Positions 7,947 to 63,264 of a stretch of 64,000 bases of DNA are shown here, piece after piece. The DNA is taken from assembly GCA_030645735.1 (NCBI GenBank), contig JAUSNP010000006.1:68095-132094 (forward strand), written 5' to 3'. Positions within the stretch are counted from its first letter, which is position 1. Each line of letters starts with the position of its first letter. The notes beneath the pieces are model-generated. The model was not told the DNA's origin. It did no database searches and worked only from the letters and a program-made list of their open reading frames with translations. Position numbers and translations under genes: made by a program. The DNA is from Candidatus Moraniibacteriota bacterium (GTDB lineage: Bacteria; Patescibacteriota; Minisyncoccia; Moranbacterales; UBA2206).

Positions 7947-7975
7947 TTGACCTCCCGCTGGTTACCCTGTATACT
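7947..7975 (+). promoter_or_regulatory. sigma70-type promoter (TTGACC-17-TATACT) directly upstream of structured element A
   Basis: -35 TTGACC at 7947-7952, a 17-nt spacer, and -10 TATACT at 7970-7975. Confidence 0.6.
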
Positions 7976-7990
7976 CAATAAAGTGCCTTA

Positions 7991-8147
7991 GAACCTACTC
8001 ATAATCTCCATATTCTGCTGCGAAATTGAAATTCCGGCTGCAAACCGTTCAAAGCTCGTCGGGTTATATGATAGCCCTTCTCGCTTTTCACGATTTTCGC
8101 TCGAAATTTCAATCTCTCGCGACGAAAGAGAGATTATGAGTAGGTTC
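7991..8147 (+). repeat. structured inverted-repeat element copy A (candidate ncRNA / MITE-like), 157 nt
   Basis: 18-bp perfect terminal inverted repeat GAACCTACTCATAATCTC / GAGATTATGAGTAGGTTC. An internal ~80-nt core is about 85% identical to copy B at 23844-24028. Confidence 0.7.
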
Positions 8148-24038: not shown

Positions 24039-24716
24039 ATGAGCAATGCATTTGAAATTTATCATGAGGACATCGTGGATAGAAATAGCAAGGATAAGAT
24101 AATTGAGGCTATTCTCAAGCATATCGGCGATATTGAAATTTTTTTCAAGAGTGATTATGTCCACAAAACTAGGAAACAAGAATTTGGATTTCATATACCT
24201 GAACAGTTTGAGGTTTTACGAAATATTCAAATATTGAAAGAGCGGGTGAATGAGATATCTAAAGAAGATCCTGAGATGATTTGGCAAAATCACATGGCGC
24301 ATGTTTTGGGAAACTCAATCACAACTTTTGCTGGAGCTTCAGCAATGAAGTTTGAGCACGGTGATTTTTATAGCAAGGATGATGAAGAAAAACATTTTCC
24401 GATTGAACGCTTCAAGCTCATCAAAGATCATATGGAGCTGATGTTATTTTATATTAAAGAACTGCAAAACAACCCAGATTTAATCAAAGAAGAAATTGAT
24501 TCAAGCGCGGGCTATTTGAAGCATTTTGTTGAATTTTTGTCTTGCGATTTGCCAACGCAAACCCCAGAACAGCTCAAATTGTTCAAGTTTTTTCATGAAT
24601 TGAAAGAAGGTAAAATAACCCCAGAAAATTTCTTTGAAGCCAGTGCAGAGGTGCAAAAATATTTAGATGTTGAAAAAGTTAAAAATGAGTTATTAGCTGA
24701 GGATGAAAACAAATAG
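24039..24716 (+). CDS. hypothetical protein
   Basis: 225-aa ORF directly downstream of element B. Confidence 0.5.
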   Translation: MSNAFEIYHEDIVDRNSKDKIIEAILKHIGDIEIFFKSDYVHKTRKQEFGFHIPEQFEVLRNIQILKERVNEISKEDPEMIWQNHMAHVLGNSITTFAGASAMKFEHGDFYSKDDEEKHFPIERFKLIKDHMELMLFYIKELQNNPDLIKEEIDSSAGYLKHFVEFLSCDLPTQTPEQLKLFKFFHELKEGKITPENFFEASAEVQKYLDVEKVKNELLAEDENK

Positions 24717-62301: not shown

Positions 62302-63264
62302 ATGTTAACAGATGAAGTAAAAATTAAAGTCTTTGCTGGTCGGGGAGGCGACGGCGTGGTCGCTTTCAACAAAACCAAGATGAGTCTTGGTCCAACCGGT
62401 GGCACAGGTGGCAAAGGTGGAAATGTATATTTCCAAGGCGTTTCGAATTTATCAGCGTTGAATAAATATAAAAATAAACCCAAGCATTATGCAGGCAATG
62501 GCAAGAATGGCCAGACCGACAATTCCGATGGCCGTACTGGCGAAGACATCATTTTGACTGTACCGATTGGTTCGGTCCTGCATAATTTGACCACAGGTGA
62601 AGATATTGATGTAAAAACGGTTGGCGAGCCAATTTTGGTGGCTACTGGCGGTTTTGGTGGCCGGGGAAATTTTTGTTTCCGCTCACCAGTCAACACTTCG
62701 CCGGAAGAGCGTGAAGAGGGCAAACCAGGTCAAGAATTTGAATTTATGCTTGAGCTTCGCTTGATTGCAGATATTGGTCTAGTGGGCTTGCCAAATATTG
62801 GAAAATCGAGCTTGCTGAACGAATTGACTAAGGCAGATGTCAAAGTAGCTAACTATGAATTTACAACGTTAGAGCCGAATTTGGGGGCTCTGGAGGGCAT
62901 TATAATCGCAGATATTCCAGGGTTGATTGAAGGCGCTTCTTTGGGTAAAGGATTGGGTATAAAATTTTTGAAACATATCAAAAGAACCACAGCTTTGGTA
63001 CATTGTATCTCGCTGGAGTCAGAAAATCCGAGACGAGATTATGACATTATCCGCAAAGAATTGGGGGATTTTGATCCTGAACTTTTGCAGAAAAAGGAAA
63101 TCATTTTGCTAACCAAATCAGACTTATTAGAAAAAAAGGAAATTGATGCTAAAATTAAAGAGATTAAAAAAATCAACCCAGTAGTGGAAGTCATTTCAAT
63201 TCATGATTGGGATAGTTTGCAAAACATCCGCAAAGTGTTTTTGGAACTAGCTAAGCCTCTGTAA
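62302..63264 (+). CDS. obg: GTPase Obg
   Basis: The N-terminal Gly-rich Obg fold (GGDGVVAFNKTKMSLGPTGGTGGKGGNVY) and G domain (GLVGLPNIGKSSLL). Confidence 0.9.
   Translation: MLTDEVKIKVFAGRGGDGVVAFNKTKMSLGPTGGTGGKGGNVYFQGVSNLSALNKYKNKPKHYAGNGKNGQTDNSDGRTGEDIILTVPIGSVLHNLTTGEDIDVKTVGEPILVATGGFGGRGNFCFRSPVNTSPEEREEGKPGQEFEFMLELRLIADIGLVGLPNIGKSSLLNELTKADVKVANYEFTTLEPNLGALEGIIIADIPGLIEGASLGKGLGIKFLKHIKRTTALVHCISLESENPRRDYDIIRKELGDFDPELLQKKEIILLTKSDLLEKKEIDAKIKEIKKINPVVEVISIHDWDSLQNIRKVFLELAKPL

Follow-up and report, generated by a model that had tools for sequence, protein, structure and literature searches.

Are two short, self-complementary elements whose terminal helices differ by compensatory changes a pair of RNA genes, or copies of something that moves? 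The question is raised by elements A (7991‒8147) and B (23844‒24028) in a 64,000-nt stretch of DNA (hereafter the window) from a Candidatus Moraniibacteriota bacterium (assembly GCA_030645735.1, contig JAUSNP010000006.1, forward-strand positions 68,095 to 132,094). An initial annotation, made from the window's sequence, had interpreted them primarily as paralogous structured noncoding RNA (ncRNA) genes of the 6S type, and listed a hairpin-ended MITE, a miniature transposable element with inverted repeats, among the alternatives. Our analysis supports the latter. Since the repeat is dispersed, orthologous sites are found empty, TNA trinucleotides flank the copies, and the termini are similar to those of the IS1031 group, we consider A and B to be copies of a foldback MITE that has ends of the IS5/IS1031 type and inserts at TNA, with a probability of roughly 0.8.

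A and B belong to a dispersed repeat family

Both elements were confirmed with the coordinates and sequences first given for them, and so were their perfect terminal inverted repeats of 18 bp in A and 19 bp in B (Table 1). The core of ~80 nt that they share (8030‒8108 in A and 23911‒23990 in B) was likewise recovered, with roughly 85‒90% identity; in the alignment, the two cores differ by scattered substitutions and one single-base indel. A 24-base stretch of the core has no chance match in the shuffled window. Each element as a whole is an imperfect rod or palindrome; the arms of A measure 78 nt and are 71% complementary. RNA-fold z-scores against shuffles range from -7.6 to -10.6 over both strands of A and B, and the rod fold of B reaches -9.9 on the plus strand and -10.6 on the minus strand. 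A core search combined with a terminal-repeat pattern scan revealed no core copies besides A and B in the 64-kb window. A fifth match to TCATAATCTC in the window, at 63035, falls in coding sequence and was rejected as another copy.

Beyond the window, A and B are not a mere pair but members of a dispersed repeat family. Additional copies with target-site duplications had been named in the initial annotation as a mark of a mobile element, and further copies, mostly flanked by TNA, were found: 22 complete copies at 21 loci and about 9 partial ones, in at least nine Moranbacteria/Patescibacteria genomes. An exact scan for 20 specified core bases, with one genome per species, gave 17 genuine matches in eight metagenome-assembled genomes (MAGs) and three chance matches in a Paenibacillus gene. 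Six of these MAGs are labelled Moranbacteria/Patescibacteria or "bacterium", and two are labelled Bdellovibrionales. A metagenome scan yielded further copies. More diverged copies were retrieved via their contigs with a profile of a conserved minus-frame peptide, whose matches were 19 tiny "hypothetical proteins", all of them gene calls on further copies. When viral contigs, plasmids and phages were searched for the family, they gave chance coding matches or nothing. As far as sampled, the family is confined to Moranbacteria/Patescibacteria genomes. Typical copies are present in two MAGs labelled "uncultured Bdellovibrionales" (L019, contig CAZMNQ010000031.1, and L020, contig CAZIBB010000005.1), and L019 is identical to several metagenome contigs (L024, L026 and L029); their presence there could be explained by mis-binning or by horizontal spread to another phylum.

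The standard copy is 183‒186 nt long (about 184 nt), and complete copies span 157‒219 nt. Terminal repeats of 17‒20 bp with 0‒2 mismatches are present in 20 of the 22 copies. B is a standard copy, and A (157 nt) is a shortened one that matches only positions 52‒182 of the family profile (93.9 bits in nhmmer), corresponding to the 3' two-thirds. A is without the A-rich 5' side branch and has a different sequence in place of the middle stem, and it is flanked by TTA and TCG, which are unduplicated. Since the flanks are unduplicated and the element is internally deleted, A is probably an old and immobile copy. In the family alignments, the side branch lost in A differs in sequence among copies and is missing from the 3' arm. 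The copy at L041 8429‒8647 (the same as L042 5973‒6191) contains a 43-nt GC-rich insertion (CCCGACCGTCTCGCCAAGCGATCGTCGCGGGCGGA...) within the core; despite this insertion, it has perfect terminal repeats and TAA/TAA flanks.

Copy number varies from one to at least six per genome, and the contexts are unrelated. MAG JAUPWI01 has at least six distinct junctions, and near-identical copies lie at the ends of seven of its contigs, which is the usual signature of a multi-copy repeat breaking short-read assembly. For the organism of the window itself, the Logan contig (L035) breaks inside B. Exact-protein look-ups with genes of the window matched only this same genome (L035 and L036). MAG JAQTLF01 contains three copies (L001, L011 and L013) with three different termini, each of them self-complementary, and the situation of A and B in the window is therefore typical. 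L009 and L038 have two copies each.

Empty orthologous sites and TNA flanks

The family is mobile, since filled and empty orthologous sites are seen at two loci. Contigs L052 and L053 carry an ortholog of the open reading frame (ORF) that starts directly downstream of B (ORF 24039; 73% amino-acid identity), and the ~187 nt matching element B are absent from them. These contigs keep the same upstream terminator hairpin, TAGAAT box and start region as the window. MAFFT alignment places a single TAA at their empty junction, where the window reads TAA-element-TAA, and this one TAA favours a duplication over a TNA belonging to the element's ends. In L051, whose ortholog of ORF 24039 is 96% identical, the site is filled. 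At the second locus, L031 is filled and L004 is empty, and the flanking genes share 87‒90% protein identity. In this pair, DNA identity is 92% as far as the precise edge of the element, and further downstream the two sequences become homologous again at a conserved promoter-like site. In L052, the ortholog of ORF 24039 is directly followed by an rve-type (IS3/IS481-like) transposase gene (932‒1816, minus strand), which is unrelated to IS5-type ends and is the only transposase seen nearby.

TNA occupies 40 of the 51 flanking trinucleotides, against 6.1% in the surrounding DNA (p about 5e-39), and an exact TAA/TAA or TTA/TTA pair flanks seven of the 21 loci, including that of B. Several copies start exactly at a TAA or TAG stop codon, and others end 10‒22 nt before a start codon; such positions are expected for a TNA-seeking element purged from coding sequence in a gene-dense genome. 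Vertical in-situ evolution was also considered, as the copies of L013 and L022 both adjoin ORFs of 439 amino acids, and it was rejected because those ORFs are not homologous.

The termini resemble those of the IS1031 group

The terminal-repeat consensus of the family is G-NNN-CT-N6-AATCTCA. ISLrh, an insertion sequence (IS) of the IS5 family and IS1031 group, has a 17-bp inverted repeat, GAACCTGTCTAGTATCT, and members of the IS1031 group insert at TNA and produce direct repeats of exclusively 3 bp (PMC12016507). Compared in register from position 1 with this single published repeat, the family termini match at a mean of 10.8 of 17 positions and at up to 14 of 17, as in GAGCCTGTCTAAAATCT. Shuffled ISLrh repeats match the family termini at a mean of 4.6 positions and never above 9.9. 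The left terminal repeat of B is identical to the ISLrh repeat at 12 of 17 bases, in register. The terminal positions that are invariant in the family (G1, C5, T6, T8 and A14‒T17) coincide with those common to ISLrh. No transposase ORF lies inside the element, and six-frame translation gives only short, frame-broken ORFs.

The family shows what is expected of a MITE, namely small size without a transposase ORF, terminal inverted repeats, dispersed copies and insertion polymorphism, and it shares with the IS1031 group a resembling inverted repeat and a TNA target with a putative 3-bp repeat. A promoter-like site, TTGATA-16-CATAAT, is located at 8133‒8160 on the minus strand and reads into A, and its -10 hexamer is within the terminal repeat. 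The equivalent hexamer in other copies is TATAAT, TAAAAT or CAAAAT. Such hexamers would be expected if this arm came from the left end of an IS, with the promoter of the transposase in it.

Compensatory changes and DNA-level arm dynamics

The compensatory changes that drew attention to A and B are genuine and strong, and once the relatives are added they are far beyond chance. We examined 54 consensus pairs in 19 distinct copies. In this set, 96.4% of cells are paired, against 82.3% in shuffles, and 29 of the 54 pairs show double compensatory changes. Double changes fill 146 cells, against 46 in shuffles and 9‒17 when the partner is slid by 1‒3 columns, whereas one-sided (wobble) changes fill only 9. 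Outside one fixed U·G column, G·U occurs about 10 times and A·C 18 times. Many of the compensated changes are transversions (A-T to T-A, G-C to C-G), which are impossible via a wobble intermediate. The orientation of the copies relative to flanking genes is about 11:7, without bias, and there is no kinship among their neighbours, which include the rRNA leader, a sigma-factor operon, FtsK-RecA, a protease and riboflavin genes. Covariation specific to RNA, with G·U tolerated, A·C avoided and one strand favoured, is not what these copies show.

Two further observations provide direct evidence of arm dynamics at the DNA level. In the copy at L015 3156‒3311 (MAG JAUPWI01), the core is flipped with respect to the asymmetric side branch, an isomer that fits with the two arms of one element having recombined with each other. 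In the diverged copies L037, L038b, L040 and L009b, core mismatches have been turned into Watson-Crick pairs, with one arm altered to match the other. The claim that covariation excludes a terminal repeat recognised by a protein cannot be upheld, since the varying positions are the unconserved ones while G1, C5, T6 and the AATCT of positions 13‒17 are fixed. Compensatory changes by which the hairpin is preserved have been described in bcr1, a mobile repeat of Bacillus (PMC3184786). As a rule, MITE transcripts form stable hairpins, and the direct repeats of MITEs degenerate as the copies age (PMC10969869).

Each copy is a foldback whose halves are imperfect reverse complements, located in a TNA present on both sides. 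These observations suggest the following scheme. A DDE transposase of the IS1031 group, encoded elsewhere, would bind both identical ends, excise the element and insert it at a TNA with a 3-bp duplication. Insertions survive only in intergenic DNA, where they often abut a stop codon exactly or precede a start codon by a few nucleotides. B has inserted downstream of the -10 box of ORF 24039 and ahead of its start codon, and A is a probably older copy, internally deleted, with the tandem promoter-like sites of the 16S leader on either side of it. The two arms may be kept identical by arm-to-arm copying or repair within a DNA hairpin together with element-level selection for two equivalent ends, which is the explanation we prefer. 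The compensated differences between copies would then arise because the arms are kept identical, and not because an RNA helix is selected.

Observations that weigh against a MITE, and the conserved core

Several observations weigh against this interpretation. In the window and in 4‒20 kb around each copy (roughly 400 kb), neither a full-length IS with these ends nor an IS5-family transposase was found. The search for the parent IS used genome-specific terminal repeats with up to three mismatches at all examined loci, and every match was a MITE copy; the autonomous IS1031-group partner would be encoded elsewhere. Positions 2‒4 and 7‒12 of the terminal repeat are highly variable, also among copies of a single genome. 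At seven of the 21 loci the two flanks have the same middle base, against a permutation mean of 4.5 (p = 0.11); since this is not above the control, the case for a 3-bp duplication is carried mainly by the empty-site alignments. Mean pairwise identity is 0.83‒0.89 in the core, against 0.56‒0.62 in the outer terminal repeat, middle stem and side branch, and it is 0.90 in the inner terminal repeat. A core better conserved than the ends is the reverse of the usual MITE pattern and is not explained by a transposase that recognises only the ends. Lastly, the strand corresponding to the minus strand of the window folds better by 4‒20 kcal/mol in all 14 copies tested, which counts as one observation and not 14, because the core is shared by descent.

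The last two points are also what favours a different role for the ~80-nt core, as a functional single-stranded module (RNA or hairpin DNA) that rides in the MITE or was exapted from it. Such a module could be a processed small RNA, a site for RNase III or another protein that affects the adjacent gene, or a hairpin needed for transposition. About 50 columns are invariant in the first 14 copies. The mismatches and bulges of the core are the same in most copies, and they persist in arms whose complementarity is maintained elsewhere. In many samples and strains a copy has been kept at one and the same locus, an inward-facing -10-like hexamer (CATAAT, TATAAT or TAAAAT) lies in the terminal repeat, and small RNAs arise from some MITEs of other bacteria (PMC10969869). 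On the other hand, the strand bias comes mostly from the shared invariant core, and no G·U excess is seen in the variable columns. The four diverged copies described above have repaired core mismatches to Watson-Crick pairs, and the L041 copy tolerates its 43-nt insertion inside the core. The copies have neither an orientation bias nor a common neighbouring gene, and the core has no Rfam match. We regard a functional module as unlikely, though it is the strongest of the competing explanations. Conservation of the core is otherwise attributed to element-level selection, in which only transposition-competent lineages leave copies.

Much less probable is the interpretation that A and B are paralogous rod-shaped regulatory RNA genes of the 6S type, or a structured cis-leader, with promoters of their own. 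The strong z-scores of the rod fold, the strong covariation and the promoter-like site upstream of A are in its favour, and 6S RNA (RF00013) resembles the element in its length of ~180 nt and its overall rod-like shape. However, an Rfam search of both strands of A and B returned no 6S or other family at the gathering threshold or at E ≤ 10, apart from weak matches at E ≤ 10 that are due to chance and involve only long-hairpin microRNA precursors (plant MIR). Within the window, Rfam recognises only the 16S gene (8619‒10184) and two tRNAs. 6S RNA is a non-mobile product of a single-copy gene with a central bubble resembling an open promoter; the present element is a rod without a large central bubble, occurs in one to at least six copies per genome in unrelated contexts and in both orientations relative to transcription, and is absent from orthologous sites.

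The promoters assigned to the two elements do not belong to them. TTGACC-17-TATACT upstream of A is a real site that matches 10 of 12 consensus positions, but it is a promoter-like site of the host and not the element's own. The TAGAAT -10-like box before B is present as described, but it is that of the host gene and is conserved in L052 and L053, where the element is absent. The interpretation as paralogous structured ncRNA genes of the 6S type, which the initial annotation put first, is unsupported in view of the missing Rfam match, the dispersed repeat, the empty sites, the TNA flanks and the IS1031-like termini, and it is already contradicted by the presence/absence polymorphism together with these flanks.

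The least credible proposal, that the core encodes a peptide of ~35‒60 amino acids in a conserved minus-strand frame (FRAKTLKSEEGY..NPTSFERFAAEI), is favoured by the frame itself, which about 11 of 14 copies keep open and conserved, and by the 19 small ORFs that gene callers predicted on such copies, but one-nucleotide indels break this frame in three of the 14 copies (A among them), two further frames are equally open as the sequence is a palindrome, invariant runs of more than 16 nt lack third-position wobble, what looks like a start codon (NTG) changes in concert with the bases it pairs with, and a profile search found no homolog among larger proteins. The core was also considered as a remnant of the coding end of a transposase, or as a peptide gene, and both were rejected, since the profile matched just the 19 tiny ORFs on other copies, frameshifts occur and codon periodicity is lacking. 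The core is not a gene; in several copies, including A, single-base indels interrupt every frame.

Local context of A and B

The features of both elements and the promoter-like sites around them are listed in Table 1.

Table 1 Positions of elements A and B, their parts and adjacent promoter-like sites in the window
Feature	Position	Strand	Remarks
Host promoter-like site TTGACC-17-TATACT	7947‒7975	+	Outside the element; probably the first rRNA promoter
Element A	7991‒8147	+	157-nt deletion derivative of the same family
A left terminal inverted repeat GAACCTACTCATAATCTC	7991‒8008	+	Perfect complement of 8130‒8147
Conserved core of A	8030‒8108	+	Alignment with the core of B
A right terminal inverted repeat GAGATTATGAGTAGGTTC	8130‒8147	-	Perfect partner of the left arm
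Second promoter-like site TTGACA-17-TAAACT with upstream TG	8183‒8211	+	Downstream of A
TAGAAT -10-like box of the gene starting at 24039	23822‒23827	+	Conserved in L052/L053; outside the element
TAA, left putative 3-bp target-site duplication of B	23841‒23843	.	TAA on either flank
Element B	23844‒24028	+	Full-length 185-nt copy; 168.9 bits against the family profile (nhmmer)
B left terminal inverted repeat GAGCCTGTTCATAATCTCA	23844‒23862	+	Perfect complement of 24010‒24028
A-rich 5' side branch of B	23863‒23891	+	Family alignments
Conserved imperfect-palindrome core of B	23911‒23990	+	Mean pairwise identity across the family 0.83‒0.89
B right terminal inverted repeat TGAGATTATGAACAGGCTC	24010‒24028	-	Perfect partner of the left arm
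TAA, right putative 3-bp target-site duplication of B	24029‒24031	.	Single TAA in the empty ortholog

A sits 16 nt downstream of the -10 hexamer of the first promoter-like site, and both of the tandem sigma-70-like sites precede the 16S gene. Transcription from the first site, if it is active, would make A the 5' end of the pre-rRNA leader. The 64-kb window contains neither a 23S nor a 5S gene, and the rRNA genes appear unlinked. A 28-nt inverted repeat that is 86% complementary (8467‒8494 and 10275‒10302) brackets the 16S gene like a processing stem. B separates the conserved TAGAAT box from the ATG of ORF 24039, which is followed by a gene for a sigma-70-type factor. Judging from this arrangement, the 5' untranslated region (UTR) of ORF 24039 would include a rod of 185 nt whose end is 10 nt away from the start codon.

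Other repeats were observed in the window. One of them is a hairpin, (A)TCCTTCC-ATACGACCATATA-AGGAAGGA(T), whose 13-nt loop is invariant in its four plus-strand copies (966‒1010, 1428‒1472, 2567‒2611 and 40953‒40997). The copies precede the start codons of four unrelated genes by 25‒60 nt, namely a Trp-repressor-like gene (1040), a GT4 glycosyltransferase gene (1464) and the genes at 2650 and 41005. The 3' arm resembles a Shine-Dalgarno (SD) sequence and is paired with an anti-SD arm, making this hairpin a candidate 5'-UTR motif that sequesters the ribosome-binding site. A GC-rich palindromic repeat, GGATTCCGGGTCAAGCCCGGAATGACAG, has three intergenic copies in this AT-rich genome (25384‒25415 and 54172‒54203 on the plus strand, and 54106‒54137 inverted), two of which face each other at a distance of about 35 nt; in its appearance it is like a REP element or another small mobile repeat. 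A 141-nt direct repeat with 79% identity (45057‒45197 and 45273‒45413, spaced 216 nt apart) is probably an internal repeat of coding sequence.

Comparison with known elements and significance

ISLrh of Lacticaseibacillus rhamnosus (857 bp, IS1031 group) is similar to the family in its terminal repeat, both in the length of 17‒20 bp and in the in-register sequence, and in its insertion at TNA with a 3-bp repeat, which is putative in the family. Unlike ISLrh, the family element is about 184 nt long, has no transposase gene, and is wholly a foldback palindrome instead of two short repeats around a gene. Among bacterial repeats, bcr1 (Bacillus cereus group), Correia, ERIC, RUP and QMITE are likewise small, non-coding, AT-rich, intergenic and multi-copy, and form long hairpins. 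As in the present family, their presence varies between relatives (PMC3184786; PMC10969869). The family differs from other bacterial MITEs in its host phylum, Patescibacteria, and in that conservation is higher in the central core than in the outer terminal repeats. Its 3-bp TNA flanks differ from the 5-bp flanks of bcr1, and the Correia and ERIC elements have TA flanks, unlike the TNA of the family. The Tourist-type MITEs of plants (PIF/Harbinger) form rod-like hairpins as well; their parent transposases are related to IS5, their target duplication is TWA (TAA or TTA), and their terminal repeats are of the GGGCCTGTT... type, although these elements are eukaryotic.

Genomes of the Candidate Phyla Radiation are small and gene-dense, and are thought to be poor in mobile DNA. 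The MITE class is well known in bacteria and is not new. Its occurrence in Patescibacteria is without an earlier report that we could find: our literature search found no report of a MITE in this phylum, and a 2024 review of prokaryotic MITEs does not mention Patescibacteria (PMC10969869).

The finding calls for caution in ncRNA screens, since near-perfect compensatory covariation can arise in a DNA foldback without selection at the RNA level. Before such hairpins are called RNA genes, the ratio of wobble to A·C pairs, the orientation bias and the state of orthologous sites need to be examined. For Moranbacteria, the family breaks MAG assemblies and is mis-annotated by gene callers as small hypothetical proteins, with 19 such clusters, and it is usable as a marker of strain-level insertion polymorphism. 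A more far-reaching and rather improbable idea, which we rank just behind that of a functional module in general, is that the core is unneeded by the transposase and is a functional folded RNA or single-stranded DNA module that spreads among Moranbacteria genomes by means of an IS1031-type MITE. If this is true, a core landing in 5' leaders, such as those of the 16S gene and ORF 24039, would rewire the expression or processing of host transcripts.

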